From NCBI GenBank assembly GCA_038087875.1, contig CM075994.1:558001-622000 (forward strand): 64,000 bases of DNA, in the 5' to 3' direction. Position 1 is the stretch's first letter, and each line of letters starts with the position of its first letter. The translations under genes and the position numbers were made by a program. Positions 13,861 to 54,600 of this stretch are shown piece by piece. Source of the stretch: Malacoraja senta (taxonomy: Eukaryota). The notes below the pieces were generated by a model that saw nothing but the letters and a program-made list of their open reading frames with translations, was not told where the DNA came from and searched no databases.

Positions 13861-14060
13861 NNNNNNNNNNNNNNNNNNNNNNNNNNNNNNNNNNNNNNNN
13901 NNNNNNNNNNNNNNNNNNNNNNNNNNNNNNNNNNNNNNNNNNNNNNNNNNNNNNNNNNNNNNNNNNNNNNNNNNNNNNNNNNNNNNNNNNNNNNNNNNNN
14001 NNNNNNNNNNNNNNNNNNNNNNNNNNNNNNNNNNNNNNNNNNNNNNNNNNNNNNNNNNNN
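13861..14060. other. Assembly gap (200 N)
   Basis: Run of N. Confidence 1.
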
Positions 14061-33140: not shown

Positions 33141-33832
33141 GGCACCAGTGTGAGACTAAATGACGTTTAATTTAAAGATGCAGAGTGGCACAATTAGCTT
33201 TTAACAGCAGAAGCATCAATGCACACGGGTCAGTTGGTTTAAATGCACAAGGATAGTCGAGCGAATAGAATCTACAATGACATCCACGTGCTGGAAATCT
33301 TAAAACATATCTTCGATTAGAATGCCCTATAGTCCGACACACACTTTGGTAAGGAAATATTTACAACTGGAAATGATGAAGGTAAATACTGTTGTGAATC
33401 TGTGAAATTCTCTGCCACAGAAGGCAGTGGAGGCCAATTCACTGGATTGTGTTCAAGAGAGAGTTGGATACAGCACTGCATTAACGGAATCAAGGGATAT
33501 GGGAAGGAAACAGGAACGGGGCACTGATTCTGGATGCCCAACCATGATCATATTGAATGGCGGTGCTGGCTCGAAGGGCCGAATGGCCTTTCCCCTATAT
33601 TTCTATGTTCCGCGCTCGATAATTGGTCACCATAGCCCCTGCTACATTGGCTGACAACCCTCAGATACACACCGGGGGCGTTTACCAATGAAGTAATTTT
33701 GATTGGAACTTGCATTCAGCGCTTTTAAAACGAATTCTTAACTTCTACTTGAAATATCCTATTGTTTTATTGGAGTATATGCGAAATACTTTCGGTGCTC
33801 GCCACGTTTGTTCTCACTCGGAGTCGTTCATC

Positions 33833-34219
33833 ACGCGTGGAACTCGGTTACTACTCACCGTTCAGCGGGTCACCGTGAGATCAGGGCGACCCGGAGCCGA
33901 ACATGGGCCGCTCAGTAAATTTCCGCAAAATCATATCCAGTTTATTTTCAATCGGCTCGTTATTTTCTCTCTTTTTCTTTGGTAAGTGTTTTTTTAAATA
34001 AATTAATTGTCTGTTCAGGATCATTTAGTTCTCCGTGACGCGTGAAACTCGGTTACTTCTCGCCTGTTCAGCGGGTCACCGTAATCCCAGGGCGACGCGG
34101 AGCCGAACATGGGCCGTCCAGTAGATCTCCGCAAAATCAGTTTCCTTTCAATCGGCTCGTTGCTTCGGGAAGTGTTTTTTTCAATTATTTGTCTGTTCAG
34201 GATCATTTAGTTCTCCGTG
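33833..34219 (+). repeat. Tandem duplication of the 5'UTR/leader-exon region (33833-34037 and 34038-34219); second copy disabled
   Basis: Both copies run ACGCGTG..AACTCGGTTACT...GGAGCCGAACATGGGCCG...TGTCTGTTCAGGATCATTTAGTTCTCCGTG. Copy 2 (ATG at 34109) has lost most hydrophobic codons and its donor reads GGGAAGT instead of GGTAAGT. Confidence 0.85.
33903..33981 (+). CDS. Exon 1 (signal peptide) of an IgSF cell-surface receptor: MGRSVNFRKIISSLFSIGSLFSLFFF
   Basis: The ATG is in a good Kozak context (AACATGG). It encodes a basic N-region and a hydrophobic core. The exon is 79 nt and ends in phase 1 at a perfect G|GTAAGT donor, in frame with the downstream Ig exons (G|CC = Ala). It sits in non-repetitive, CpG-rich DNA. 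Confidence 0.75.
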
Positions 34220-35304
34220 ATAGAGAGTATTGAAGATAGAGCAAAAACAAATATTTCCTTTATCATCCTTACTTTTTTGCAAATATTCATTGTTCTTTAT
34301 CTCTCCATATCGCCGTCCATATCTCTCGTTTCCCTTACCTCGCACCAGTCTGAAGAAGGGTCTCGACCCGTAACGTCACCCATTCCTTCTCTCCAGGGAT
34401 GCTACCTGTCCCGCTGAGTTACTTCAGCTTTTTGTGTCTATCTTCGAAAAAAAAAACCGAACACAGCAGCATCTTTAGTTTTGAGATACAGCACGGAAGC
34501 AGGCCCTTCGGTCCACCGAGTCCACGCCGACCGGTGATCACCCCGTTCACACGCCAGTTGTATATTGTCCCACTTTCTCATCCACTCCCTTCACACTGGA
34601 GGCAATTTATATCCGCGCGTCTTTGGGATGTGGGAGGAAACCGGAACACCCGGAGGAAACCCACGCGGTCACGGGGAGAAGGTGCAGCACCCGCGGTCAG
34701 GATCGAACTCGGGTCTCTGGCGCTGTGAGGCAGCAACTGTGCCCGCTGTACCACCGTGCCGCTCTATTTAGGGAGATGGACAGGCTACGTTTCGGGTTGA
34801 ACCCACATCTCATCTGTCCATTCCCTCCACAAATGCTGCCCGACCTGTTGAGTTCCTCCAACACTTTGTTTCTGCTCAAGATTCCAACATCTCGTGTATC
34901 CATTCAAGGTCGATAGATTGAGGAGTGTTGAAGGAATCGAGGGATATGGATTCAGGGCGGGGATGTGGCGCTGCAGGAGATAATTGTTTAGAGATACAAC
35001 GTAGAAACAGGCCCTTCCGTGCCGACCTCGCACACTAACACTATCCGACACACACCAGGGACAATTTACATTTACACCGTCAATTAACCTGCAAGCCTAC
35101 AGGTCTTTGTACGTCTCTAGCGTGTGGGGGGGGGGGGGGGGGGGGGGGGGGACCGAAGATCTCGGAGAAACCCCACGCAGGCCACGGGGGGAACGTACAA
35201 CAGACAGCACCGGTAGTCGGGATCGAACACGGATCTCTGGCCGTACCGCTGCGCCACCCGATGATTCTTATTTGGTTGCGGGCCGTGAATGATGGGGCGA
35301 ATGG

Positions 35305-36250
35305 CAATAGACAATAGACAATAGACAATCGAGAACAGACAATAGACAATAGACAATAGACAATAGACAATAGACAATAGACAATAGACAATCGACAATC
35401 GACAATAGACAATAGACAATAGACAATAGACAATAGACAATAGACAATAGACAATAGACAATAGACAATAGACAATAGACAATTGGTGCAGGAGTAGGCC
35501 ATTCGGCCCTTCGAGCCAGCAGCGCCATTCAATGTGATCATGGCTGATCATCCACATTCAATACCCCGTTCCTGCCTTCTCCCCATATCCCCTGACTCCG
35601 CTATCTTTAAGAGCCCTATCTAGCTCTCTCTTGAAAGTATCCAGAGAACCGGCCTCCACCGCCCTCTGAGACAGAGAATTCCGCACTCATAACTGTGAGA
35701 AAAAGTGTTTCCTCGTCTCCGTTTTAAATGGCTTACCCCTTATTCTTAAACTGTGGCCCCTGGTTCTGGAGTCCCCCGACATCGGGAACATGTTTCCTGC
35801 CTCTAGTGTGTCCAAGCCCTTAACAATCTTATATGTTCCAATAAGATCCCCCCCTCATCCTTCTAAACTCCAGATTGTACAAGCCCAGCCGCTCCATTCT
35901 CTCAGCATATGACAGTCCCGCCATCCCGCGGATTAACCTTGTAAACCTACGCTGCACTCCCTCAATAGCAAGAATGTCCTTCCTCAAATTAAGGGACCAA
36001 AACTGCACACAATACTCCAGGTTTGGTCTCACTAGGGCCCTGAACAACTGCAGAAGGACCTCTTTGCTCCTATACTCGACCTTGTTATAAAGGCAAACAT
36101 GCCATACGCTTTCTTCACTGCCTGCTGTACATGCATGCTTACTTTCATAGACTGATGAACAAGGACCCACAGATCCCGTTGTACTTCCCCTTTACCCAAC
36201 TTGATGCCATTTAGATAGTAAATTACCTTCCTGATTTTGATACCAAAGTG
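35305..36250 (-). mobile_element. CR1 LINE 3' fragment with an expanded (CTATTGT)n tail (35305-35482)
   Basis: YRSKEVLLQLFRALVRPNLEYCVQFWS on the minus strand. A 7-bp tandem array of about 25 units abuts the 3' UTR end. Confidence 0.9.
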
Positions 36251-38499
36251 GAATGGCTTCCTTCTACATCTTGGCGTGATCGCCTCAAAAGAAAACACTA
36301 CATGTTTCATTTTCCAGCTTGCTCCTTATATCCGTGATCCGTGGAACAGATTCAGGGCTCGTTACACGACACGTACGGACACCGAGATCTTCGAGCGTAA
36401 CGCGGATAATGAAATGATTATCCACCGCAAAGGCTTATACAGTAGCGTCTTAGTTTAGTTTAGTTTATTTATTATTGTCGCGTGGACCGAGATACAGTGA
36501 AAATCTTTTGCTTCGTGCTATGCAGTCAGCAGAAAGACAATACACGGTTACAATCGATTCGTTTACAGTGTGCAGATACATGATAAGGAAATAACGTTTA
36601 GTGCAAAGTAAAGCCAGCAAAATCCATTCAACCGATAGTCCGAGGGTCACCAATGAGGTAGATAGCAGTTCAGGACTGCACTGCGGTGTTGAAAGGACGA
36701 TTCAGCTGCCAGATAACAGCTGGGAAGAAACTATCCCTGAATCTGGAGGTGTGCGTTTTCACACTTCTGTACCTTTTGTCTGATGGGAGAGGGGAGAAGA
36801 TTTAGGGCAGAGGTTTAAGGTGAGAGGGGATAGATGTGATGAACCGTGAGGGCCACATCTTCACACAGAGGGCGGTGAGCTGCCAGAAAGAATGGCTGTC
36901 ACTGATATAATAACAACATTTATACCCGTTGGGTAGACGTCAGCAGAAAGACAATACACGGTTGCAATCGATTCATTTACAAAGTACAGATACATGATAA
37001 AGGGAATAACGTTTAGTGCAAGGTAAATCCAGCAAAGTCCAATCAAAGTCCGAGGGTCACAAAAGATGTAGATAGTAGTTCAGCACTGCTTTCTGGTTGT
37101 GGTATGGTGATTCTGTTGCCTGATAACATATATTCAAAATAACATAATAAATATGTTTTAATTTTAATATTAGTTGCACCCATTCAATACCAATTTAAAT
37201 GCACGCTAGTGTGCTTTATCCAAACTGGGTGGGAGTCTGAAGAAGGGTCCTGACCCGAAACGTCGCATGTCCATTCCCCTCCACAGATACTGCCTGACTC
37301 GTTGAGTTACTCCAGCGCTTTGTGTTTTACTCAAGCCTTTGGCGATTGTTGTTACAGCGCGGAAACAGGCCCTTCAGCTCACAGAACCCGCGCCGAAGGG
37401 CCTGTTTCCCGCAGAATAGTACTAATCTCCACAACCGGGGACAATTTACAATTTTGCAGAAGCTAATTAACCTTGCAAACTTGTACGTCTTTGGAGTGCG
37501 GGAGGAAACCAGGAATCCCGGAGAAAATCCACGCGGCCACGGGGAGAACGTATAAACTCGGTACAGACAACGCCCGTCGTCAGGATCGAACCCGGGTCTC
37601 TAACGCTGTGAGGCAGCAAACCTTCCGCTGCGCCACTGTGTTCCGAATTAGCTTTAGCGCAGAGCGGAGTTTAATCTGCATTCGAGATCCCACAATCTGT
37701 TTTCTATGTAGACACTTTCAAAATAAAGTAATTCCGCTTAAATGCATGTTGGTCAATCGGCGCAGTCTCGTGCGGGAACGAGCACCAAGTCCCCATCTTA
37801 ACATTGGCGCTCTGTACACAATAAATGCGCTATCATTAGTAGCTTATAGAGTCAGCTTAACTGTGAATGTGTAGATGAACCGCACGACGAATGTAAAGAA
37901 CCATGTTTTTGTTTAGATTAGTTTCGCTTTAGTTCGGTGATCCAGCATGGAAACTGACCCTTCGACCCATCGAGCCCACAAACATCGATCACCTGTCGAC
38001 CCCAGTTCTATTTATCCCACTTTCTCATCCACTCCTTACACACTAGTGACAATTTACAGAGAGGTCAAGGAAACTACAAACCCGCACGTCTTTGGGATGT
38101 GGGAAGTAACCGGATTACCCGGAGGAAACCCACGCGATCACAGGGAGATCGAGAAAACTCCACACACACACAGCTCGCGAGGTCAGGATCGAACCTCTGC
38201 AGGTCTTTGGTTCTGTAAGGCGGCTGCTCTACCACTGTGCCACTGCGCCGCCCTTTTCTTTCTCTTGTGCTTGTTTATAGTTATTTTTTAAAAATATTTT
38301 AAAAAGTTTATTTCTGAAATTTAAAAAAATAATCCCGCTGATATTTGCGGTGTTTCCTGGGAACTCAGCAATCACGATTGTGCGACGTGTTATTAGTAGA
38401 TGCCCTTGGTATTGTTATTTCAACAGGTTACTTGAAATAACAGTGTCAGCCTGGCCAATAGCGACTATGCCCAGCGTGTCGGAGCGACAGGGGTGCGTT

Positions 38500-39075
38500 T
38501 ATAAAATATAGAAACAAAAAAATTTTGCAAGAAGGCTCCAATACCAACTATAAATATGTGGATTTCAAATATGTTTTGAAACATTACACCTAGAAGAGAT
38601 AAGACTCCTCCTAGCAGGTAAACCAGATCATTTCCACCTGACGTGGTCTGCATTTATAGAATTATTACAAAAATAGGGTGCAAAAGTACTTTAAAAAAAA
38701 AAATTGAGGTCAGGTAAGGGGGGATGATAGTTGGTATGTCCCATTTAATGTCCCATTTACGTAATGCTCAAAAAATATTTGTTTCTCTCTTTTTCCTCTT
38801 TCTCTTTCTCTTTCTTTTCTAGGGCCTATTTCTTAACTCTTTTTCTTTTGTTTTTAATTTTGCTCTTATAGTGTCTCTGTCCTTTCTTGTTGTCACATTT
38901 TCTACACTTTCACTTTTTCCTTCACTTTCTTCTTTCTTTCAATCTTTTCCTTTTCTAGTGTAAAAAATAAATGGAGTACATTAATTGTAAGAAGATATAA
39001 ATGACGAGTACTAATGTATGCGGTTGTAATGTAATGTACTTCTAATAAATAAAAATTAAAAAAAAGAAACAATAA
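38500..39075 (+). mobile_element. L1/Tx1-clade LINE 3' end
   Basis: Encodes APIPTINMWISNMF..TLHLEEIRLLLAGKPDHF, then a pyrimidine-rich UTR and AATAAATAAAAATTAAAAAAAA end. Homologous to 24850-25510. Confidence 0.6.
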
Positions 39076-40297
39076 AAAACAACACAGATGCTGGTTTATA
39101 CCAAAGATAGACACAAAGTGCTGGATTAACTCAGCGGGCCAGGCAGCATCTCTGGAGAACATGGACAGGTGACGTTTCGGGTCGGGACTATCTTCAGACC
39201 CTTCTTCGGAAGTAATGGTCCCGATCCGAATCCATACCTATCATTTTCCTCCAGAGATGCTGCCGGGCCGACTGAGTTCCTGGAAAACTTTGTGTCTACG
39301 TTTGCAAAATGCACGGCTTTGGAGAAAGAGATGGCGTGTCTGATGGTGTGGGACGTTGAGAGGGCCAGCATGGGAGCGACGGGCCGAAGGGTTTCTCGCG
39401 CTGTTGCATTCTTTGGTTGTGCATTTGTTCTTGTTTGTTGTTGCCGTTGTTTCTGTTGTGAAGATTTTGAGGTGAGCTTGCATTTGGAGAGTTATGATCA
39501 GACCAGTGTGAACTTGTTCTGAGAAAGTCTAGAAACACTAGACACCGTAGAAGATGGTACGCTGAGCAAACTAATAAACTGTTGGAAGAACTCAGCGGGT
39601 CAGGCAGCATCGGGGGGGAGGTGTGGACAGATGTTATGCACCAGTACTCTCCTTCCAAACCTTGAAGAAGTGCCCCGACCAGGAGACGTCGCCTGTCCAT
39701 TCCCCTCCACATATAGACACGAGAAGATGGAGTAACTCAGCGGGACAGGCAGAATCTCCGGAGAAAAGATGGGTGACGTTTCGGGTCGATACCCTTCTTC
39801 AGGCTGAGAGTCAGGGGAGAGGCGAGACACAGAGATATGGAACGGTGGGGAGTGAAAGCGAGATATCAAAGGGAGTGAGGGTCAAGGAAAATATAGCAGA
39901 GATTGTTGTTAGCTGACGGGGAAAGTGACAACGAAGCAAACGGAGATACAATCTAATCAGGGAGATAGTCAGAGAGGGAAAGCAAGGGTTACTTGAAGTT
40001 AGATAAGTCAATATTCATATCGTTGGATGTGTAAGCGTCCCAATGATCTTATAGAAACAGACGGGATCTTATAGAAACAGACGGGATCTTATAGAAACAG
40101 AGGGGATCTTTTAGAAACATACATAATTCTTACAGGATAGGACAGGGTAGATGCAGGAAAAGTGTTCCCTATGTTGCAGGAGTCCAGAACCAGGGGTCAC
40201 AGATTAATTAAATGGCGGTGCTGACCTGAAGGGCCGAATGTCCTCCTCCGACACCTATTTTCTAAGTTTCTATGACCCTTTATCTGTGATGTTGCAG

Positions 40298-40477
40298 CCT
40301 CAGAAAGCAGCGTCACCGTGAGCGTCCGTGAGAGAGAAGTGAGCGGTACCATCGGCCACTCGGCCCTTCTCGCCAGCTGCTACTCCACACCTGACCTCTG
40401 CTCCCAACTGACATTAGTGTGGCGTTTCCACTACAGCACAACTCCGCTTGTGACACTGAGCCGATCAAACTGCTCTC
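40298..40477 (+). pseudogene. Truncated Ig half-exon A1 (strands A-C only)
   Basis: TGTTGCAG| acceptor, then ASESSVTVSVREREVSGTIGHSALLASCYSTPDLCSQLTLVWRFHYSTTPLVTLSRSNCS, breaking into a C/T-rich tract. No in-phase donor was seen. Confidence 0.75.
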
Positions 40478-40728
40478 ACCCCCTCCCACCCTCTCCCCCC
40501 CTCTCCTCCCCACTCATCCTCCCTCTCCCTTTCCCCTGCCATTCCCACTCCCACTCCAATCCCCCACCCTCACCTTCGCCGCAGCCTGGGTCAGTGTTGT
40601 GTTGTCGAGTGGCCTCCAGCTCCCCCCATCGCAGATGCTGCCTGACATCACGGTCACACGGGGACGACCGTGTCCCGGGGCTGGGATTGTAACCGAGACC
40701 CGTTGATCCTTTACCTGTTGTGTTGCAG

Positions 40729-41157
40729 CCTCGGGAAGCAGAGTCTCCGTGAGCATCCGTGAGAGTGAAGTGAACGGGACCGTCGGCCGCTCGGCCCTTC
40801 TCGCCAGCTGCTACTCTACCGACCCCTGCTCCCAGCTAACATTAGTGTGGGGTTTGCACAACGCCACACCTCCGCTTGTGAGACTGAGACGATCAAACTG
40901 CTCTTCGCTTGTGAGACTGAGCCGATTAGACTGCCCTCCACAACCTGACCGACCCGGTTGTAACTGTTCAGTTCGCTGGACGACCAGTCCTTCCCACACG
41001 GGCCGAGTCCAACTCTACCCCGAGAATGGGTCCCTGTTACTGCGGGATTTACGGCGCAGTGATAGCGGAGTGTACGAGATATCGGTTTACAGCGGCGGAA
41101 ACAGCGCTGTTAAAGACAACGTGACATTAACGGTCCACAATTACCACACTGGGACAG
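40729..41157 (+). CDS. IgV-like exon B1 (HEPACAM/CEACAM/CD2-type N-domain)
   Basis: Acceptor TGTTGCAG| and donor ACAG|GTAGGA; 429 nt, phase 1-1, open. Motifs GTVGRSALL, C-strand W, GRVQLYPENGSLLLRDLRRSDSGVYEISV and VTLTV closely recall the HEPACAM V domain (GTVGKSALL...ENGSLLL...DEGTYEVEI...INLTV). Confidence 0.85.
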
Positions 41158-43819
41158 GTAGGAACCGGCGGAGCGTTCAAACACAGAGGGGGCAATTAAA
41201 GCATGAAAGTCCAAATAGCAATGGGGTAACAAAGCGGGGTAATTAAACTGAGAGTAACCCCTTCCATCCCATCGGCGCAGCGGTAGATTTGCTGCCTCAC
41301 GGCGCCAGAGACCCGGGTTCGATACTCACTACGGGTGCTGCCTGCACGAAGTTTGTAGGTTCTCCCCGTTTTTTCTACAGGAGCTCCGGTTTCCTCCCAC
41401 ACTCCAAAGACGTAGAAGGTTTGTAGGTTAATTGGCTTCGGTAAAAATGTGAATTGTCCCTGATGTGTGTGGGATAGTGCGAGTGGGCCGAAGGATCGGT
41501 TTCCGCGCTGGTCTAGTGAGACGGGAATGATTTCGCGTTCAGAGACCACCATCTAACGCAAACACTCCGCTTCCCTCTTTGATGGAGCAAGGTTGATATG
41601 TACCTAAGGCAGCGGTGCAGTTGCTGTCTAACAGGACCAGAGACCCGGGTTCGATCCTGACTACGGGTGCTGTCTGCACGGAGTTTGTACGTTCTCCCCG
41701 TGACCGCATGGGTTTTCTCCGTTTGCTCTGGTTTCCTTCCACGCTCCAAAGACGGACCGATTTGTAGGTTAATTGGTTTGGTAAAAACACAAATAATCCC
41801 CAGTACGTGTGGGATAGTGTAGCTGTGCGGGGATCGCTGGTCGGCGCGGACTCGTGGGGCGAAGGTTCTGTTTCCACGCTGTATCTCTGAACAAAACTAA
41901 ACTAAGCTTGTCGTTGGCGGCGAGCTGAATATTGTCACCGGGTGTCAGCGATTGCAATCCCTTGTCGAAGTATGTTTAGGTTAGAGATACAGCATCGACG
42001 CAGGCCCTTCGGCCCCCTTCACGACGACCATCGATCACCGTTCACACTAGCTCTATTTTATCCCTCTTTCGCACCCACTCCCTGCACACCTAGAGGCAAT
42101 TTACAGAGGGCCAATTAACCTACAAACCCGCACGTCTTTGGGAAATGGGAGGATACCAGAGCACCCGGAGGAAACCCACCCGGTCACAGGGAGAACGTAC
42201 AAACTTCACGCAGAGACAGCATCCGGGGTCAGTATATAAAATTGTGAGAGGCACAGATAGGGTAGACAATCAGAACATTTTTTCTCAGAGTGGAAATATC
42301 AAGGACTAGAGGGCATAGGTTTAAGATGAGAGGAGATAAGTTCAAAGGAGCGGGACAAACGTTTTACAGAGGTGGGTGCCTGGAAAGCGCTGCCTGGGGT
42401 GGTGGTGGTGGTAAAAACGATAGTGGCATTTCAGAAGCATTTAGATAGGCACATGCGAATGCAGGGACTGATAGGGTATAGATCACGTGCATGTAGATGA
42501 GAATAGTTTAACTTGCGATCACGTATGGGCATTGTGGGCCGAAAGGCCTGCTCATGTACTGTACCGTTCCGCAGTCTACGTTCTCTTTTACCGAATGGAG
42601 GTGGGACTCAGATCATTGACGGAGTTGTCGGGGACCAAAGAATCAGAGGATATTCATGATGCACAAGGCGGCCTTTCGGCCCGACATGTTGGTGGTGGCC
42701 GCATGTTCTGATCTCTTTAAGCGACGTTGTGCATTAGTGATATTGTCCATCTGTACCTTCGTTACACACCTGCATTTAGCTGCACACCATTGTCCGCAAA
42801 CGGACCCTTCACTCAGTCTATCTTCTACATTTGTTTTCTTGATTCATCTAATGCCCTCGCTAACGGTGTGGGACCGTTGAGAGAGCCAGCATGGGAGCGA
42901 TGGGCCGAAGGGTTTCTCGCGCTGTTGCATTCTTTGGTTGTCCATTTGTTCTTGTTTGTTGTTGCCATTGTTTCTGTTGTGAAGATTTTGAGGTGAGCTT
43001 GCATTTGGCGAGTTATGATCAAACCCGAATGAACTTGTTCCGAGAAAATCTAGAAACACTAGAGACCGTAGAAGATGGAACGCTGAGCAAACTAATAAAC
43101 TGTTGGAAGAACTCAGCCGGTCAGGCAGCATCTGGGGAGAGGTGTGGACAGATGTTTTTCACCAGTACTCTCCTTCCAAACCGTGAAGAAGGGTCCCGAC
43201 CAGGAGACGTCGCCTGTCCATTCCCCTCCACATATAGACACGAGAAGATGGAGTAACTCAGCGGGACAGGCAGAATCTCGGGAGAAAAGATGGGTGACGT
43301 TTCGGGTCGATACCCTTCTTCAGGCCGAGAGTCAGGGGAGAGGCGAGACACAGAGATATGGAAGGGTGGGGAGTGAAAGCGAGATATCAAAGGGAGTGAG
43401 GGGTCAAGGAAAATATAGCAGAGATTATTGTTAGCTGACGGGGAAAGTGACAACGAAGCAAACGGAGATACAATCTAATCAGGGAGATAGTCAGAGAGGG
43501 AAAGCAAGGGTTACTTGAAGTTAGATAAGTCAATATTCATATCATTAGATGTGTAAGCGGCCCAATGAGCTTATAGAAACAGAGGGGATCTTATAGAAAC
43601 AGACGGGATCTTATAGAAACAGAGGGGATCTTTTAGAAACATACATAATTCTTACAGGATAGGACAGGGTAGATGCAGGAAAAGTGTTCCCTATGTTGCA
43701 GGAGTCCAGAACCAGGGGTCACAGATTAATTAAATGGCGGTGCTGACCTGAAGGGCCGAATGTCCTACTCCGACACCTATTTCCTATGTTTCTATGACCC
43801 TTTATCTGTGATGTTGCAG

Positions 43820-43999
43820 CCTCAGAAAGTAGCGTCACCGTGAGCGTCCGTGAGAGAGAAGTGAGCGGGACCATCGGCCACTCGGCCCTTCTCGCCAGAT
43901 GCGACTCCACACCTGATCTCTGGTCCCAGCTAACATTAGTGTGGCGTTTCCACTACAGCACAACTCCGCTTGTGAGACTGAGCCGATCAAACTGCTCTC
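43820..43999 (+). pseudogene. Truncated Ig half-exon A2
   Basis: Copy of A1 in unit 2, with the same acceptor and the same truncation point. Confidence 0.75.
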
Positions 44000-44249
44000 A
44001 CCCCCTCCCACCCTCCCCCCCCTCTCCCACCCACTCATCCTCCCTCTCCCTTTCCCCTGCCATTCCCACTCCCACTCCAATCCCCCACCCTTGCCTTCGC
44101 CGCAGCATGGGTCAGTGTCGTGTTGTCGAGTGGCCTCCAGCTCCCCCCATCGCACATGCTGCCTGACATCACGGTCACACGGGGACGATCGTGTCCCGGG
44201 GCTGGGATTGTAACCGGGACCCGTTGATCCTTTACCTGTTGTGTTGCAG

Positions 44250-44681
44250 CCTCGGGAAGCAGAGTCTCCGTGAGCGTCCGTGAGAGTGAAGTGAACGGGA
44301 CCGTCGGCAGCTCGGCCCTTCTCGCCAGCTGCTACTCTACACTCGGTCCCTGCTCCCAGCTAACATTAGTGTGGCGTTTCCACCCCAGCACAACTCCGCT
44401 TGTGAGACTGAGACGATCAAACTGCTCTCCGCTTGGGAGACTGAGCCAATCAGACTGCCCTCCACACCCTGACCGACCCGGTTGTAACTGTTCAGATGAC
44501 TGGATGGCCGGTCCTTCCCACACGGGGCGCGTCCAACTCTACCCCGAGAATGGGTCCCTGTTACTGCGGGATTTACGGCGCAGTGATAGCGGAGTGTACG
44601 AGATATCGGTTTACAGCGGCGGAAACATCGCTGTTAAAGACAACGTGATATTAACGGTCCACAATTACCACACCGAGACAG
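44250..44681 (+). CDS. IgV-like exon B2
   Basis: 432 nt, phase 1-1, open, with the same acceptor and donor as B1. ASGSRVSVSVRESEVNGTVGSSALLASCYSTLGPCSQLTLVWRFHPSTTP...DSGVYEISVYSGGNIAVKDNVILTVHNYHTET. Confidence 0.85.
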
Positions 44682-47321
44682 GTAGGAACCGGCGGAGCGT
44701 TCAAACACAGAGGGGGCAATTAAAGTATGAAAGTCCAAATAGCAATGGGGTAACAAAGCGGGGTGATTAAAGTGAGCGTAACCCCCTTCCCTCCCATCGG
44801 CGCAGCGGTAGATTTGCTGCCTCACGGCGCCAGAGACCCGGGTTCGATACTCACTACGGGTGCTGCCTGCACGAAGTTTGTACGTTCTCCCCGTTTTTTC
44901 TACGGGAGCTCCGGTTTCCTCCCACACTCCAAAGACGTAGAAGGTTTGTAGGTTAATTGGCTTCGGTAAAAATTTGAATTGTCCCTGATGTGTGTGGGAT
45001 AGTGCGAGTGGGCCGAAGAATCGGTTTCCGCGCTGGTCTAGTGAGACGGGAATGATTTCGCGTTCAGAGACCACCATCTAACGCAGACACTCCGCTTCCG
45101 TCTTTGATGGAGCAAGGTTGATATGTACCTAAGGCAGCGGTGCAGTTGCTGTCTAACAGGACCAGAGACCCGGGTTCGATCCTGACTACGGGTGCTGTCT
45201 GCACGGAGTTTGTACGTTCTCCCCGTGACCGCATGGGTTTTCTCCGTTTGCTCTGGTTTCCTTCCACGCTCCAAAGACGGACCGGTTTGTAGGTTAATTG
45301 GCTTGGTAAAAATACAAATAATCCCCAGTGCGTGTGGGATAGTGTAGGGGTGCGGGGAGCGCTGGTCGGCGCGGACTCGTGGAGCGAAGGTTCTGTTTCC
45401 ACGCTGTATCTCTGAACACAACTAAACTAAGCTTGTCTTTGGCGGCGAGCTGAATATTGTCACCGGGTTTCAGCGATTGCAATCCCTTGTCGAAGTATGT
45501 TTAGGTTAGAGATACAGCATCGACACAGGCCCCTCGGCCCCCTTCACGCCGACCATGGATCACCGTTCACACTAGCTCTATTTTATCCCTCTTTCGCACC
45601 CACTCCCTGCACACCTAGAGGCAATTTACAGAGGGCCAATTAACCTACAAACACGCACGTCTTTGGGAAATGGGAGGATACCAGAGCACCCGGAGGAAAC
45701 CCACCCGGTCACAGGGAGAACGTACAAACTTCACGCACAGATAGCACCCGGGGTCAGTATATAAAATTGTGAGAGGCACAGATGGGTAGACAATCAGAAC
45801 ATTTTTTCTCAGAGTGGAAATATCAAGGACTAGAGGGCATAGGTTTAAGTTGAGAGGAGATAAGTTCAAAGGAGCGGGACAAACGTTTTACAGAGGTGGG
45901 TGCCTGGAAAGCGCTGCCTGGGGTGGTGGTGGTGGTAAAAACGATAGTGGCATTTCAGAAGCATTTAGATAGGCACATGCGTATGCAGGGACTGATAGGG
46001 TATAGACCACGTGCATGTAGATGAGAATAGTTTAACTTGCGATCACGTATGGACATTGTGGGCCGAAAGGCCTGCTCATGTAGTGTACCGTCCCGCAGTC
46101 TACGTTGTCTTTTACCCAATGGAGGTGGGACTCACATCATTGACGGAGTTGTCGGGGACCAAAGAATCAGAGGATATTCATGATGCACAAGGCGGCCTTT
46201 CGGCCCGTCATGTTGGTGGTGGCCGCATGTTCTGATCTCTTTAAGCGACGTTGTGCATTAGTGATATTGACCATCTGTACCTTCGTTATACACCTGCATT
46301 TAGCTGCACACCATTGTCCGCAAACGGACCCTTCACTCAGTCTATCTTCTACATTTGTTTTCTTGATCCATCTAATGCCCTCGCTAACGGTGTGGGACCG
46401 TTGAGAGAGCCAGCATGGGAGCGATGGGCCGAAGGGTTTCTCGCGCTGTTGCATTCTTTGGTTGTGCATTTGTTCTTGTTTGTTGTTGCCGTTGTTTCTG
46501 TTGTGAAGGTTTTGAGGTGAGCTTGCATTTGGAGAGTTATGATCAGACCAGTGTGAACTTGTTCTGAGAAAATCTAGAAACACTAGAGACCGTAGAAGAT
46601 GAACGCTGAGCAAACTAATAAACTGTTGGAAGAACTCAGCGGGTCAGGCAGCATCTGAGGGGAGGTGTGGACAGATGTTTTTCATCAATAATCTCCTTCC
46701 AAACCTTGAGGAAGGGCCCCGACCAGGAGACGTCGCCTGTCCATTGCCCTCCACATATAGACACGAGAAGATGGAGTAACTCGCGGGACAGGCAGAATCT
46801 CCGGAGAAAAGATGGGTGACGTTTCGGGTCGATACCCTTCTTCAGGCTGAGAGTCAGGGGAGAGGCGAGACACAGAGATATGGAAGGGTGGGGAGTGAAA
46901 GCGAGATATCAAAGGGAGTGAGGGTCAGGGAAAATATAGCAGAGATTATTGTTAGCTGACGGGGAAAGTGACAACGAAGCAAACGGAGATACAATCTAAT
47001 CCGGGAGATAGTCAGAGAGGGAAAGCAATGGTTACTTGAAGTTAGATAAGTCAATATTCATATCGTTGGATGTGTAAGCGGCCCAATGATCTTATAGAAA
47101 CAGACGGGATCTTATAGAAACAGAGGGGATCTTTTAGAAACATATACAATTCTTAGCGGATAGGACAGGGTAGATGCAGGAAAAGTGTTCCCTATGTTGC
47201 AGGGAGTCCAGAACCAGGGGTCACAGATTAATTAAATGGCGGTGCTGACGTGAAGGGCCGAATGTCCTACTCCGACACCTATTTTCTAAGTTGCTATGAC
47301 CCTTTATCTGTGATGTTGCAG

Positions 47322-47502
47322 CCTCAGAAAGCAGCGTCACCGTGAGCGTCTGTGAGATAGAAGTGAGCGGGACCATCGGCCACTCGGCCCTTCTCGCCAG
47401 CTGCTACTCCACACCTGACCTCTGGTCCCAACTGACGTTAGTGTGGCGTTTCCACTACAGCACAACTCCGCTTGTGAGACTGAGCCGATCAAACTGGCTC
47501 TC
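47322..47502 (+). pseudogene. Truncated Ig half-exon A3
   Basis: Copy of A1/A2 in unit 3. Confidence 0.7.
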
Positions 47503-47753
47503 ACCCCCTCCCACCCTCTCCCCCCCTCTCCTCCCCACTCATCCTCCCTCTCCCTTTCCCCTGCCATTCCCACTCCCACTCCAATCCCCCACCCTTGCCT
47601 TCGCCGCAGCCTGGGTCAGTGTCGTGTTGTCGAGTGGCCTCCAGCTCCCCCCATCGCAGAAGCTGCCTGACCTCGCAGTCACACGGGGACGATCGTGTCC
47701 CGGGGCTGGGATTGTAACCGAGACCCGTTGACCCTTTACCTGTTGTGTTGCAG

Positions 47754-48147
47754 CCTCGGGAAGCAGAGTCTCCGTGAGCGTCCGTGAGAGAGAAGTGAAC
47801 AGACCGTCGGCCGCTCGGCCCTTCTCGCCAGCTGCTACTCTACACCCGACCACTGCTCCCAGCTAAGACTAGATTGGCGTTTACACCCAGCACAACTCCG
47901 CTGTGAGTCTGAGCCGATCAGACTGCCCTCCACAACCTGACCGACCCGTTGTAACTGTTCAGATGACTGGATGGCCGGACCTTCCCACACGGGGCGAGTC
48001 CACCTCTACCCCGAGAATGGGTCCCTGTTACTGCGGGATTTACGGCGCAGTGATAGCTGAGTGTACGAGATATCGGTTTACAGCGGCGGAAACAGCGCTG
48101 TTAAAGACACGTGACATTAACGGTCCACAATTACCACACTGGGACAG
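47754..48147 (+). pseudogene. IgV-like exon B3, frameshifted as assembled (pseudo-exon or sequencing error)
   Basis: Acceptor and donor are intact. Length is 394 nt, which equals B2 minus the 33-nt internal repeat minus five single-base deletions. Confidence 0.65.
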
Positions 48148-49829
48148 GTAGGAACCGGCGGAGCGTTCAAACACAGAGGGGGTAATTAAAGCATGAAAGT
48201 CCAAATAGCAATGGGGTAACAAAGCGGGTTAACCCCCTTCCCTCCCATCGGCGCAGCGGTAGATTTGCTGCCTCACGGCGCCAGAGACCCGGTTCGATAC
48301 TCACTACGGGTGCTGCCTGCACGAAGTTTGTACGTTCTCCCCGTTTTTTCTACGGGAGCTCCGGTTTCCTCCCACACTCCAAAGACGTAGAAGGGTTGTA
48401 GGTTAATTGCTCGGTAAAATTTTGAATTGTCCCTGATGTGTGTGGGATAGTGCGAGTGGCCGGCGCGGTCTGGGTGGGCCGAAGGATCGGTTTCCGCGCT
48501 GGTCTAATGAGAGGGGAATGATTTCGCGTTCAGAGACCACCATCTAACGCAGACACTCCGCTTCCCTCTTTGATGGAGCAAGGTTGAAATGTACCTAAGG
48601 CAGCGGTGCCAGTTGCTGTCTAACAGGACCAGAGACCCGGGTTCGATCCTGACTACGGGTAGCACCCGTATGGGTTTCTCCGTTTGCTCTGGTTTCCTTC
48701 CACGCTCCAAAGACGGACTGGTTTGTAGGTTAATTGGCTTGGTAAAAATACAAATAATCCCCAGTGCGTGTGGGATAGTGTAGGTGTGCGGGGAGCGCTG
48801 GTCGGCGCGGACTCGTGGGGCGAAGGTTCTGTTTCCACGCTGTATCTCTGAACAAAACTAAACTAAGCTTGTCGTTGGCGGCGAGCTGAATATTGTCAAC
48901 GGGTTTCAGCCGATTGCAATCCCTTGTCGAAGTATGTTTAGGTCAGAGATACAGCATCGACACAGGCCCTTCGGCCCCCTTCACGCCGACCATGGATCAC
49001 CGTTCACACTAGCTCTATTTTATCCCTCTTTCGCACCCACTCCCTGCACACTTAGAGGCAATTTACAGAGGGCCAATTAACCATACAAATCCGCACGTCT
49101 TTGGGAAATGGGAGGATACCAGAGCACCCGGAGGAAACCCACCCGGTCACAGGGAGAACGTACAAACTTCATGCACAGACAGCACCCGGGGTCAGTATAT
49201 AAAATTGTGAGAGGCACAGATGGGTAGACAATCAGAACATTTTTTCTCAGAGTGGAAATATCAAGGACTAGAGGGTATAGGTATAAGATGAGAGGAGATA
49301 AGTTCAAAGGAGCGGGGCAAGCGTTTTACAGAGGTGGGTGCCTGGAAAGCGCTGCCTGGGGTGGTGGTGGTGGTGGTAAAAACGATAGTGGCATCTCAGA
49401 AGCATTTAGATAGGCACAGGGATATGCAGGGACTGATGGGGTATAGATCACGTGCATGTAGATGAGAATAATTTAACTTGGGATCACGTATGGACATTGT
49501 GGGCCGAAAGGGCTGCTCATGTACTGTACCGTTCCGCAGTCAACGTTCTCTTTTACCCAATGGAGGTGGGACTCAGATCATTGACGGAGTTGTCGGGGAC
49601 CAAAGAATCAGAGGATGTTCATGATGCACAAGGCGGCCTTTCGGCCCGTCATGTTGGTGGTGGCCGCGTGTTCTGATCTCTTTAAGCGACGTTGTGCAGT
49701 AGTGATATTGTCCATCTGTACCTTCGTTACACACCTGCATTTAGCTGCACACCATTGTCCGCAAACGGACCCTTCATTCAGTCTATCTTCCACATTTGTT
49801 TTCTTGATCCATCTAATGCCCTCGCTAAT

Positions 49830-50555
49830 GTTCCGCCATTTACTACCATCCTGCTTGGCTACCTTCTCAATTTTCCCGGCTCCCACTCTTTCTCCTCCAC
49901 TCCCCACCCTCCTCCCCATCTGTCCCTCCACTACGCACCCCTTTCTCTCCACCTCCTTTCACACCCTACTCCACAACTCCAACCACTCCCACCCCGGCCT
50001 CCACATCTCCCACCAACTCCAGCACCTCTCCACATTTCCAACCAGCCCGCTCCCCACATCTCCCACCACTCCACACCCTCTCTCCACATCTCCTTCCAGT
50101 CCATGCACTATCTCCACATCTCGCACCATTCCCACCACGGTCTCTACACATCCCTATCACCCACAGTTCCTCTCCACGTTTCCAAACAGCCTCCCATCCC
50201 CGCTCTCCACATCTCCACATCTCCCAAGACCCCCAGACCCCCTTCCCCAATCCCCAGGTCCATCTCCATACCTCGCTCCGCCACAACTCCCTCCACACCT
50301 CCCACCCCCCACTTCCCAATCTAGACCTCCCTCGACTGTCTGCTCCACAAATCCATCCACTCTAACCCCTTCTCTATGCCACACCCTCTCTCCAAATCCC
50401 CCTCCACCCTCACCCCCTACACGTCTCACTCCACTCTCCACGGCCCCTCCAACCCCACTCCCTCTTCACGTCCCCCTCAAACGCCAGCCCTTCTGCTCCC
50501 CGTCCCTTCCACCCAATCCCATCACCACTTTATCTTCCGATAAACATTATTCCAT
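49830..50555. repeat. C-rich low-complexity tract (CTCTCCACATCT-like units)
   Basis: Directly visible. It gives spurious Pro/Ser/His ORFs. Confidence 0.85.
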
Positions 50556-51095
50556 TGTGTAGGAAGGAACTGCACATTTCGGGACCCCGAAACGTCACCC
50601 AATCCTTCTTTCCAGAGATGCTGCTTGTCGCGCTGAGTCACTCGAGCTTTTTATGTCTATCAAACGTTATTCCCTTTATCCCGTATCTGTGCCCTGTAGA
50701 CTGCTTGCTTGTAATCACGAACAGTCTTTCCGCTGACTGGATAGCACGCAACAAACGTGCTTTTAGACACAAAAAGCTGGAATAACTCAGTGGGATAGGG
50801 AGCATCTCTGGAGAGAAGGAATGGGTGGCGTTCAGGTCGAGCCCTTCTTCAGACGAAACGTTTCTCGACCCGAAACGTCACCCATTCCTTCTCTCCAGAG
50901 ATGCTGGCTGTCCCGCTGAGTTATTCAGGCATTTTGAGTCTATCATCTGCCAGCATCTGCAGTTCCGTTTTACACAAACATGCTTTTCACTGTACCTCGG
51001 CATATGGGACAATAATAGCCTAAACGAAACTAATCTAACTCCCAATTCAACCGCGCGAAACTAATCTGATGATCAGTTGATTTATACTGTTTCAG

Positions 51096-51226
51096 TTACA
51101 GAGTATGCTCCGACCGGAGGGACTGCGGCGCCCCCTAAGCCAACAACTGCTTTCTGTCTGCGGGCGTTGGTCCTTGGAAGTCTGACCTTATTCGGGATAT
51201 GCCTGTATGCGATCTACAGATACTAA
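51096..51226 (+). CDS. Terminal stalk and transmembrane exon: VTEYAPTGGTAAPPKPTTAFCLRALVLGSLTLFGICLYAIYRY*
   Basis: Acceptor TACTGTTTCAG| in phase 1, in frame with the Ig exons. It encodes a Pro/Thr stalk and a ~23-aa hydrophobic segment, stopping at TAA 51224-51226. It is an island of unique sequence among repeats. Confidence 0.8.
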
Positions 51227-51419
51227 GTGAGAAGAGACAGCGGGAACTCCGGGTTCTCGCGAAGGTTTTCATATTCGGACTGTGCGGAGCTTTAAAATCC
51301 AAGTGCACCTCGTCCCGGGATTTTGTAAAGAATAATCCAATAATGGCACGGCAGCCTCATTCCTCAAAACATTAACTTTGATGTGTTGTGGTTATTGGGA
51401 AAATAACGATGATAAACAA

Positions 51420-51425
51420 AATAAA
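51420..51425 (+). promoter_or_regulatory. Candidate polyadenylation signal of the Ig receptor gene
   Basis: AATAAA about 195 nt after the stop codon, before repeat sequence resumes. Confidence 0.5.
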
Positions 51426-51590
51426 CACATTATCCTTGACTACATTCAGGATGTTCGTAATTGATAGATTTTTTCATTAAATTGATTGAAAGATACACAG
51501 CATTGAAACAGGTACTTTGGCCCACCGAAGATAGACACAACATTCTGAGTAACTCAGCGGACAGGCCCCATCTCGGGAGAGAAGGAATGG

Positions 51591-51624
51591 GTGACGTTTC
51601 GGGTCGAGACCCTTCTTCAGACTG
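51591..51624 (-). ncRNA. Minimal hammerhead-ribozyme-like motif in a Penelope-type terminal repeat (representative copy)
   Basis: Minus strand reads CAGU-CUGAAGA-A-GGGUC-UC-GACCC-GAA-ACGU-C-AC: CUGANGA core, stem II hairpin, GAA, palindromic ACGU stem III and GUC cleavage triplet. Confidence 0.6.
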
Positions 51625-54600
51625 TTCTTCTCTCGAGAGATGCTATCAGTCCCGCTCAGTTTCTCCAGCATTTTGTGTCTATCTTCGATTTCAACTCGCA
51701 TCAGCAGTCCTTTCCTACAGTCAGTCTGAAGAAAGTGATCGACCCTAAACGTCACCCATTCCGTCTCTCGAGAGATGCAGCCTGTCGCGCTGAGTTACTC
51801 CAGCATTTTTTGTCTATCTCGATTTATCTAGCATTTGCAGTTCCTTTCCTACACACTTTGGCCCACCGAGTGCACGCCGATCACCCATCACCCGCTCACA
51901 CTAGTTCTATGTTATCCCACTTTCTCATCAACTCTCTACACACGGGGCGGGGTTACCAACAAAGCAGCACGACTTTGGGAAGTGTACATGTGTCAGAGGT
52001 TATGGGGAAAAGGCAGGAGAAATGGGTTAGGAGGGAGCGATTATATCAGCCACGATTGAATGGCGGAGTAGACCTGATGGGTGGAATGGCCTAATTCTAT
52101 TCCTATCACTTTAGACTTATGATTAGAGATACCTTCCTCGCAACAGTATTCGGGTCTGACAGAGCTGGGTGAGTTCCGGAGAAACGTTCTTCATCAGTGC
52201 AGCATGTTTCCTATTTGCCCCAGAGTTCAGTTCCCAACAGTGGCGCAGCGGTGGAGTTGCTGCTTCGCAGCGCCAGAGACCCGGTTCGATCCTGACAACC
52301 GGCACAAATTGTACGGAGTCTGTACGTTCACCCGTGACTGCGTGGGTTTTCTCCGGGATTTCCGGTTTCTCCCCACACTCCAACGACATGCAGGTTTGTA
52401 GGTTAACTGGCTTGACAAAATTGTAATGTGTCCCTAGTGGGTGTAGGTGTCAGTGTGTTAGTGCGGGGATCGCTGGTCGGCGTGACTCGAAGGGCCGAAG
52501 GGCCCGTTTCTGCGCTATATCTAAACTAAACAAAACTAATAGTCTTTCCACGAAATTGAAATTAACAGCAATGCTCGCGGTATCTCTAGGTCCTACGCTA
52601 CTGTTACGTATGTAATTTGACGAAACATCCTTCGAACTTAACCCGGAATCAAACCTGAGTCTGGGCACCGTGTTATACGAAAGATATTGTCGAGCTTGAA
52701 AGGGTTCAGAAAAGATTTACAAGGATGTTGCCAGGACTAGAGGGTCTCATCTTTAGGGAGGGTTTGAGTAGGCTGGCACTCTATTCCTTGGAACGCAGGA
52801 GGATGATGGGAGCTATAATATCGACGTATAGATCGGGTAGATGCACAGAAACACTTGTCCAGAGTAGGGAATCGAGGACCAGAGGACAGAGGTTCAAGCT
52901 GAAGGGGAAAAGATTTAATAGGAATCTGAGTGGTGACTTCTTCACACAAAGGGTGATGGGTGCATGGAACAAGCTGTCAGATGAGGTAGTTGAGACTGGG
53001 ACTATCGCAACATTCAAGAATCAGTTAGACATGTACATGGATAGGACAAGTTTGGAGGGTTATGGTCCAGGCGCAGGTAGGTGGGACCAGTGCAGCAGGT
53101 ACATGTTGGGCGTTGTTGGCAAGTTGGGCCGAAGGACCTGTTTCCACACTATACGACGCTGCGATTCTATGAGTCACTGCGGTTGCCGCAATGAGAACTA
53201 AAGGGCGGACTGGAGTTTGAAAATGGCCCCAAAACACAGCGCCTCTTGCAGGCGGGAACAGTAGACTATGTTGTGTACAATTTGCTAATCGGGGATACTC
53301 TACTGGACTGTTTGTATGAAAATAATTTCACCGTGCGTTTCAATTGCACATGTGACAATAAAAGCACAATTGAACCATTAAACCACGTCACGTTGATTGA
53401 TATGGCATGGAAACAGGCCCTTCGGCCCACCGATTGTGGGAAACAAGCGGCGGAGGAAGTCATGAGGGAGGATGCTCTTCAAATGAGTTTTCCTATCTCC
53501 CCCTCCCCCTTCCTCACTTCCTACCCCTTGCTTCGATTTCCTTCCCCTCCCTCACTTCATCAGTGTCTCTAACCCCTTCATCCCTTCCTCTGTCTTTCCC
53601 TCCTCTCCTCTCCCATTCTTGGACGCCACTCTCTCTTTTTCCTTCATTTCCTCTTCCCTCTCCTCCGTCCCTAACCTCACATTTCCCAACCTCACCATTA
53701 ATTCCCTACCTCAATATTCTATCCCGGCCCCACTCTTCCACTCTTTCCACCTCCACCCAAGTCTACCGCTCTTATATACTCTCCACCTCTCCACCTCTCT
53801 CTTTCTTTCTCTCTCACCCCATTATTTCCCTTGCACCACACCTTCAGAATAATATACCTTCAAAACGGAGATCAGCCATAACTGAACGACGGAACAGACT
53901 CGATGGACCCAATTCTGCTTCAATGTCAAATGATCATAGTCTATTATCTTCCTCTCTCTACCCCCGCCCCCTTTGCATCGTCACCATACCGCCGTCCTCA
54001 CGTGTCTCTCTTTCACACTGGAAGCTAATTATGATGTTATCGAAGTTACGATGATCATACTGCGATATTACATTGTGTTGCTACATCAGTCCGTTCATAA
54101 TGAATGGACCAAGTGATAAAGTATTTTGGAGAGGTTAGTCGTCAAATGTCTGCAATTTTTGTCTTTCCTGTCCATTAGGACATTTCACATGCTTGATCAA
54201 TGGTGTTTTATCATTGATATTTTACTATTATTAATGTTTAGTGTTTTCTGAGTCATTGGTAACTGTCACTGTATGTAATGTTGTTACTTGTGGGTGGAGC
54301 ACCAAGGCAAATTCCTTGTATGTGAATACTTGGTCAATAAACTTACTTACTTATTTCATATTATTGATTCAATTTCATCCAACAGGCTTTATGGTTGGAA
54401 ACAATCTTTAACAGCTTAAAAAGCGTTTAATATAAATTACCACGCCTATGGTAGGGCTGAGGCCAAGGAGACTGATGGAGTGACATGCTTCTGAAACTTT
54501 ATTACTTGATGGTGAAGGCAATAAAAACAGTGTAATACATAGAAAAGGATAGAAGAGAGAGAGGATATTTCCAAACTCCTTACTTTCCTGAATGATGCAG

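Follow-up and report, generated by a model that had tools for sequence, protein, structure and literature searches.

What is served by a gene that sets an array of homologous exons for variable-type immunoglobulin (IgV) domains between one leader exon and one stalk and transmembrane (TM) exon? A gene of this layout lies in the window analyzed here, a stretch of 64,000 nucleotides (nt) from Malacoraja senta (assembly GCA_038087875.1, contig CM075994.1, called C18 below, positions 558001-622000); exon positions are given as window positions. Its product is a type I immunoglobulin superfamily receptor with a disulfide-poor, CD2/CEACAM/HEPACAM-like V domain. We propose that this receptor is probably the activating (decoy) partner, of FcRγ type, in a family of paired IgV receptors that has no name, and that its two intact V exons, B1 and B2, would be used in series or singly skipped. 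It is a likely activating member because its leader is unique, its V mosaics are shared with paralogues that carry ITIMs (immunoreceptor tyrosine-based inhibition motifs), and its TM segment holds an arginine with no tail behind it.

The leader, B1, B2 and TM exons lie on the forward strand at the positions that a preliminary description of this DNA had given them, with AG/GT sites in phase 1. The leader exon (33903..33981) has 79 nt, that is 26 codons plus 1 nt, ends in a phase-1 GT donor and is surrounded by a CpG-rich stretch (33801-34200). B1 (40729..41157, 429 nt) and B2 (44250..44681, 432 nt) are intact. The coding part of the stalk/TM exon (51096..51226) starts in phase 1 and closes with TAA at 51224-51226, and a candidate polyadenylation signal follows at 51420..51425 (+). 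Joining the exons confirmed the products of 212 amino acids (aa; leader, B1, TM) and 356 aa (leader, B1, B2, TM) that had been predicted, and gave a third of 213 aa (leader, B2, TM). What the earlier reading missed is the key feature: an arginine codon (51161-51163) opens the hydrophobic segment of the TM exon, and a tail of two residues precedes the TAA, in a gene that faces ITIM-type paralogues. Across the genome, the leader and the TM exon have no second intact copy. There is no assembly gap within the gene; the one gap, an N run at 13861-14060, lies outside it. Two sequencing runs covering the TM exon region, which behaved as genomic DNA and were compared over 46400-52600, each yielded a contig over 50897-51249 that departs from the assembly by one other letter and two gaps; among the 40 of 214 rows listed, none lies at the TAA.

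B1 matched 16 places in the genome, and these resolve into a second gene type that includes I1-I4. Both I1 (C18:218390-241911, forward strand) and I2 (C18:544948-516040, reverse strand) comprise a leader, a V and a TM exon followed by two exons for a tail that carries tyrosine motifs (IIYCLL / TTYCLL), and I2 sits 47 kb upstream of the activating-type gene in divergent orientation. ITIM-bearing partners stand in the same cluster as a gene with a charged TM residue and a short, motif-free tail, and the earlier notion of an expanding receptor holds for this cluster. I3, on contig C3360, has all five exons, the tyrosine-motif tail included, and I4, on contig C5129, has a leader, a V and a TM exon, after which the contig ends. 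The leaders of the ITIM-type paralogues are unrelated to that of the activating-type gene, which is unique to it, and the TM exon of I1-I4 differs from its own as well. Homology between the two gene types is limited to the V exon with about 70-350 bp of flank, plus one dispersed repeat fragment.

Further traces of the family were seen elsewhere in the genome. The V-TM intron of I2 holds three 2.68-kb tandem copies of a V 3′ half, 98-99% identical (C18:525080-535776), and two ITIM-type tail exons without a gene of their own stand where the contig begins (C18:1305-6125), possibly the end of I4 or that of a fifth gene. Distant V exons of the same family, at 30-38% identity, occur at C18:6878612-6878971 (+) and 6897724-6898089 (-), with others at C3930:30797-31168 and 44365-44763 and at C680:314829-323540; some of the distant exons are broken or partial, and they match the P0084/P0090 subfamily.

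By their sequence, the V exons are mosaics across genes. The middle and 3′ part of B1 are nearly identical to the ITIM-type I1, with 100% identity over alignment columns 236-300, where B1 and B2 share 87.7%. The third V exon, B3, is 97.0% identical to I4 and 93.4-93.9% identical to B1 and B2. A permutation test of neighbouring-site compatibility gave p=0.0039 for seven exons (24 sites) and p=0.0011 for the six exons without B3 (21 sites). Between tandem units 1 and 2, the V exon differs by 6.5% and the rest by 2.9% (p=0.0005), and the same excess in the other two unit pairs has p=0.008 and 0.039. The amino-acid differences cluster in residues 30-88 (C-C''), with 27/59 positions against 17/77 elsewhere (p=0.005). 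Homogenisation is confined to the ligand-binding V exon, and gene conversion between genes would be the simplest reading of the cause of these mosaics. Conversion homogenises the ligand-binding exons of paired receptors, according to excerpts of two papers (PMC3210942, PMC5112662).

The V domain itself is unusual in its cysteines. B1 and B2 match the Pfam V-set just under the cut-off (E 1.4e-5 and 1.1e-4), and the predicted fold of B1 is an IgV sandwich (mean predicted local distance difference test, pLDDT, 84.7). There is no F-strand cysteine, i.e. no canonical B-F disulfide, and two cysteines in the C'-C'' insert are invariant across 17/17 aligned relatives. CEACAM chains appear among the matches of a profile comparison over the D-F strands (E 1.6e-7 and weaker). 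The earlier assignment to HEPACAM/CEACAM/CD2-type V domains is upheld. A fold search with B1 returned only generic IgV neighbours (PD-L1, TIGIT, CAR and VCBP3, at 14-19% identity), and an ESM Atlas comparison gave generic V-set clusters with no family named. An 11-codon internal duplication in the C'-C'' region (40876-40908, 44394-44463) adds one cysteine; it was seen in B1, B2, I1, I3 and two skate models, and not in B3, I2 or I4.

Protein comparison placed skate models nearest, at 79% identity. One of these, Leucoraja erinacea XP_055521960.1 (LOC129716097), joins one V, at 79% identity, to the leader and TM exon found here, and named relatives come from skates, rays, sawfish, sharks, one frog and birds. 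The gene had been described as hidden and lineage-specific; an annotated single-V counterpart in L. erinacea and relatives annotated in sharks, rays, frog and birds leave neither description standing. With a family profile, 288 representatives were retrieved at E up to 1e-10; the counts given here rest on the 150 listed, of which 99 have the full family V, 72 of the 99 with a TM call. Among these 72, 29 have only the TM arginine, 25 only an ITIM or an immunoreceptor tyrosine-based switch motif (ITSM), one has both and 17 have neither; the two features nearly exclude each other. The median tail is about 20 residues in the arginine group and about 70 in the non-arginine group, and tails of ≤10 residues occur in 10/30 arginine-type relatives.

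Two comparisons connect our gene to this division. Among 130 post-V segments, its TM exon aligns best with P0002, P0044 and P0049 (z 10.5 to P0044 and 5.7 to P0049). The arginine-type TM exon is common to several lineages, and the arginine and its surrounding segment are conserved with the shark-like P0044 and P0049, whose tails are longer. A search with the TM/tail region of P0002 returned only itself (1/7 candidates). In a tree of V domains, six arginine-type V domains are sister to ITIM-type V domains with strong support, P0050, one of the six, having been typed by eye. The genome also contains a TM exon that resembles FcεRIγ most and has its acidic aspartate.

The names of the relatives are automatic ('uncharacterized', 'HEPACAM-like' and 'CEACAM-like' in elasmobranch and bird models), and no gene name was found, as the preliminary description had anticipated in recognising none. 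A literature search, which left most subscription journals uncovered, returned no description of this IgV family and no paper on chicken LOC771657, and excerpts of three further papers mention a little-skate CEACAM expressed sequence tag or no such receptor (PMC3628338, PMC4079198, PMC6795676). This is a real gene in a known kind of system, of a family that appears to be without a name or a paper.

Our model suggests that the V array would have arisen by tandem duplication of a 3.5-kb intron-exon block, and that conversion from different inhibitory paralogues would then repaint each V copy; one activating gene would therefore mirror several inhibitory partners. Signalling would pass through an FcRγ-type adaptor via the TM arginine, and the shared ligand would be one probably exploited by pathogens. 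Short-tailed receptors with a charged TM residue signal via adaptors with immunoreceptor tyrosine-based activation motifs (ITAMs) in the excerpted reports (PMC3031540, PMC7801909), the second of which gives a TM arginine-aspartate coupling, R209-D11 (PMC7801909). Predicting the TM exon together with an FcRγ-like dimer gave a score of 0.02, which is no answer and is not used either way. B1 and B2 would be spliced in series, or singly by ordinary skipping, and B3, if truly broken, would have to be skipped for a membrane product. Expression, splicing pattern, adaptor coupling and the shared ligand are what we infer for this receptor. The family reaches from sharks and rays to frogs and birds, with an intact chicken gene, and the V domains of its arginine-type and ITIM-type members track each other lineage by lineage. 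This would make it an old set of paired receptors that could be tested in chicken cells, and a trace of prolonged conflict between hosts and pathogens in cartilaginous fish, for which such receptors have seldom been described.

Several observations weigh against this proposal. The debris within the gene (half exons, the broken B3, a dead leader copy) also fits decay, and the L. erinacea counterpart has a tail of 27 residues after the TM call, compared with two here. The N-terminal TM arginine was called by a pattern that we wrote ourselves, and the Fisher p of 3e-7 for the arginine/ITIM table is overstated by its related rows. The tree covers 61 V domains, from 41 proteins hand-picked among 137 with a full V and from six of our own exons, and the frog arginine-type V domains have no close ITIM partner among its proteins. 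I3 and I4 lie on small unplaced contigs and could be alleles. The ratio of nonsynonymous to synonymous change (dN/dS) among the intact V exons is 0.57-1.64, above 1 in 6/15 pairs, and does not establish positive selection. As to splicing, the multi-V relatives discussed below come from annotation models, and isoforms with a single V could be concealed by clustering at 90%; in Drosophila, neighbouring homologous exons in the same frame are rarely constitutive, 90/16,180 in the excerpted source (PMC3228551).

The gene was compared with several named systems. HEPACAM has an ectodomain of V plus C2 and a long tail; no C2 exon occurs in the activating-type gene or in I1-I3, and membership in HEPACAM fails on this. 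PIR and LILR receptors have C2-type immunoglobulin domains, whereas only V domains occur here, without the canonical disulfide and with a cysteine-rich C'-C'' insert. The likeness to PIR-A/PIR-B, LILRA/LILRB and FcαRI-type receptors is one of signalling anatomy: an ITIM member is paired with a short-tailed member with a TM arginine, and the binding exons are near-identical and homogenised in patches (PMC3210942, in excerpt). With the paired CEACAMs (CEACAM1/CEACAM3, and those of Xenopus), as excerpts describe them, the gene shares a disulfide-free N-type V domain, V-restricted conversion, opposite gene orientation, C-C'' variation and several N exons per gene (PMC5112662, PMC2832619). Activating CEACAMs, however, carry an ITAM of their own where our gene has a TM arginine and no tail, and there are no IgC exons here. 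In the excerpted text of a preprint, duck and chicken have no complete CEACAM gene (PMC13278318). Membership among the CEACAMs fails on the activating mechanism and on the intact duck and chicken relatives. The V domain of CD300-like receptors has the canonical disulfide, and ours is without the F-strand cysteine. The MDIRs of skate are likewise a multigenic activating/inhibitory immunoglobulin receptor family, and their excerpted description as CD300/TREM/pIgR-like sets them apart from the present gene (PMC3031540).

The tandem array has a more complex structure than first described. The duplicated block comprises 3.52 kb of exon plus intron and is present three times on the forward strand: unit 1 (39345..42864, 3.52 kb), unit 2 (42865..46388) and unit 3 (46389..49828). 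In every unit, the full V exon is accompanied by the 5′ half of a V exon, which has kept its acceptor and lacks a native donor (A1, 40298..40476; A2, 43820..43998; A3, 47322..47501). The 5′ region and leader also have a degenerate tandem copy (34038..34161, +, 84% identity), which lacks a GT donor. The statement that only the immunoglobulin exon was duplicated thus holds for the TM exon, which is single, and gives way to a 3.52-kb block with a half V and to a degenerate leader copy. From the three IgV exons that had been reported, B1 and B2 stand as intact, and B3 (47754..48147, +, 394 nt) is broken as assembled: its frame is lost after 15 codons, five single bases are missing compared with its closest relative I4, and there is one TGA. 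Joined to the leader and TM exon it stops at 63 aa, and with B1 and B2 included at 350 aa. The frameshift and stop in B3 therefore leave only two V exons usable as assembled.

The breaks in B3 may in part be consensus errors, because unit 3 has an excess of private one-base indels (13, with 78 substitutions, against 5 and 114 in units 1 and 2 together, p=0.012). At the B3 stop, position 48058, all read contigs have G, although such contigs drop rare variants. The X2 read contigs had a depth of 57-88 in unit 3 against 23-42.5 in single-copy sequence, which gives no copy number and was not used.

Two other features of the units deserve mention. In A2, a GTCAGT donor could close an in-frame exon of 291 nt (43820-44110, the half V plus a proline-rich stretch); in A1 and A3 this donor falls out of frame. 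An ATG-led hydrophobic, cysteine-rich stretch with a consensus donor in phase 0 lies at 39370-39471 and is copied in units 2 and 3; within 862 kb its copies are confined to the three units. We rejected this stretch as a per-unit leader, since its phase 0 end cannot join the phase-1 V acceptors. First exons of the clustered protocadherin/UGT1 type were ruled out too, as the V exons have acceptors and no usable start of their own.

Could the gene simply be decaying? Under this explanation, the duplications would be neutral debris, and the gene would be either silent or turning into a pseudogene, as the broken B3, the three half exons and the dead leader copy would suggest. The stop directly after the TM segment, at a point where the L. 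erinacea frame stays open, and the drift of frame beyond it point in the same direction, and inclusion of B3 would yield the truncated 350-aa product. We consider decay unlikely: the leader, B1, B2 and the TM exon are intact, as is each of their splice sites, the gene begins in CpG-rich sequence and a candidate poly(A) signal lies downstream, very short tails recur among the arginine-type relatives, and the B3 breaks look partly like consensus errors.

The preliminary description had proposed that the repertoire comes from a choice among exons, which in its strict form means mutually exclusive V cassettes, one V per transcript as in Dscam, chosen through competing RNA pairings. We find this about as improbable as decay. 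The V exons are internal, homologous, of the same phase and of similar length, and such sets are usually exclusive in Drosophila (PMC3228551, excerpt). Upstream of each V exon lies an element to which a repeat after the leader (34346-34441) can pair; further copies before the TM exon (50586-50661 and 50865-50926) can pair with these elements too, a docking/selector geometry that tandem duplication can create (PMC6071210, as excerpted). B3, if broken, requires some skipping in any case. However, the element in question belongs to a dispersed repeat that occurs 200 times in 862 kb, and an opposite-strand copy falls by chance within 5.4 kb of a random point in 43% of cases and within 1.3 kb in 13%. 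The pre-mRNA has 77 inverted pairs, the docking-type pairing among them, and many of the others are stronger. Steric, U12-type and nonsense-mediated decay (NMD) blocks do not apply to B1 and B2, whose introns are about 3.1 kb, whose GT-AG sites are identical and which are in frame together; both exon lengths are multiples of three, and no unit has a usable leader. Dscam1 and the clustered protocadherins also have tandem homologous exons between shared parts, but here each exon encodes a complete domain and the domains fit in series, only two exons are usable, and there is no leader or promoter per unit. The tandem half-V copies of I2 mark such duplication as a local habit.

The relatives are annotated in series as well. 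Among the 99 representatives with a full V, 14 have 2-6 tandem V domains, and both V exons stand in series in all five entries for chicken LOC771657, in four named cormorant isoforms and in two named ruddy-duck isoforms. As individual cases, P0035 (Anas acuta XP_068553178.1) has six tandem V domains and an ITSM/ITIM tail, P0039 (Leptobrachium) five with an arginine-type TM, and P0040 (chicken LOC771657) two with an ITSM/ITIM tail. Argued in this way from gene anatomy, series inclusion with ordinary skipping is well ahead of exclusive choice. The repertoire is mainly multigenic, with gene conversion added, and we found no feature specific to exclusive choice. A combined version, in which one activating gene has its V exons repainted from different inhibitory paralogues and one of them is picked per transcript by repeat-derived docking/selector pairing, is equally doubtful. 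In that version, a single locus would provide decoys for the whole inhibitory family. If true, exclusive V choice would equip an innate receptor of a vertebrate with a repertoire based on splicing, which would be unusual.

A further explanation concerns the last exon. The stop after the hydrophobic segment could make the TM exon a signal for a glycosylphosphatidylinositol (GPI) anchor, and the product a decoy that binds ligand without signalling. The exon does have small residues, a proline/threonine spacer and, close to the C-terminus, a hydrophobic stretch that just two residues follow, and among the CEACAMs, stop codons within TM exons have repeatedly given rise to GPI-linked members (excerpt of PMC2832619). 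Conservation of the TM arginine and its surroundings with the longer-tailed P0044 and P0049, and the frequency of very short tails among the arginine-type relatives, argue against this reading, and a GPI anchor seems unlikely to us, slightly more so than the two preceding explanations. That the triplication is an assembly artefact, with haplotypes or paralogue reads strung together, is highly improbable: the region is repeat-rich and unit 3 looks under-polished, but from end to end the units are set apart by 3-4% substitutions, with 55-78 private sites each, no gap lies inside the gene, and each V exon has its own mosaic.

In a scan for synteny with the CEA locus around the gene, 150/440 filtered open reading frames from C18:1-862000 revealed only rhodopsin-type G-protein-coupled receptors (GPCRs) and mobile elements. 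Two rhodopsin-family GPCR genes lie just downstream of the window (L027:4600-5556 and L029:810-1766, at about 626.6 kb and 642.8 kb of C18); neither has a solved relative at E up to 1e-10, and the second is split across two frames. The window itself opens with a reverse-transcriptase-like frame of a long interspersed element (LINE) at 1-1704, and many fragments of LINEs and short interspersed elements (SINEs) are scattered throughout it.

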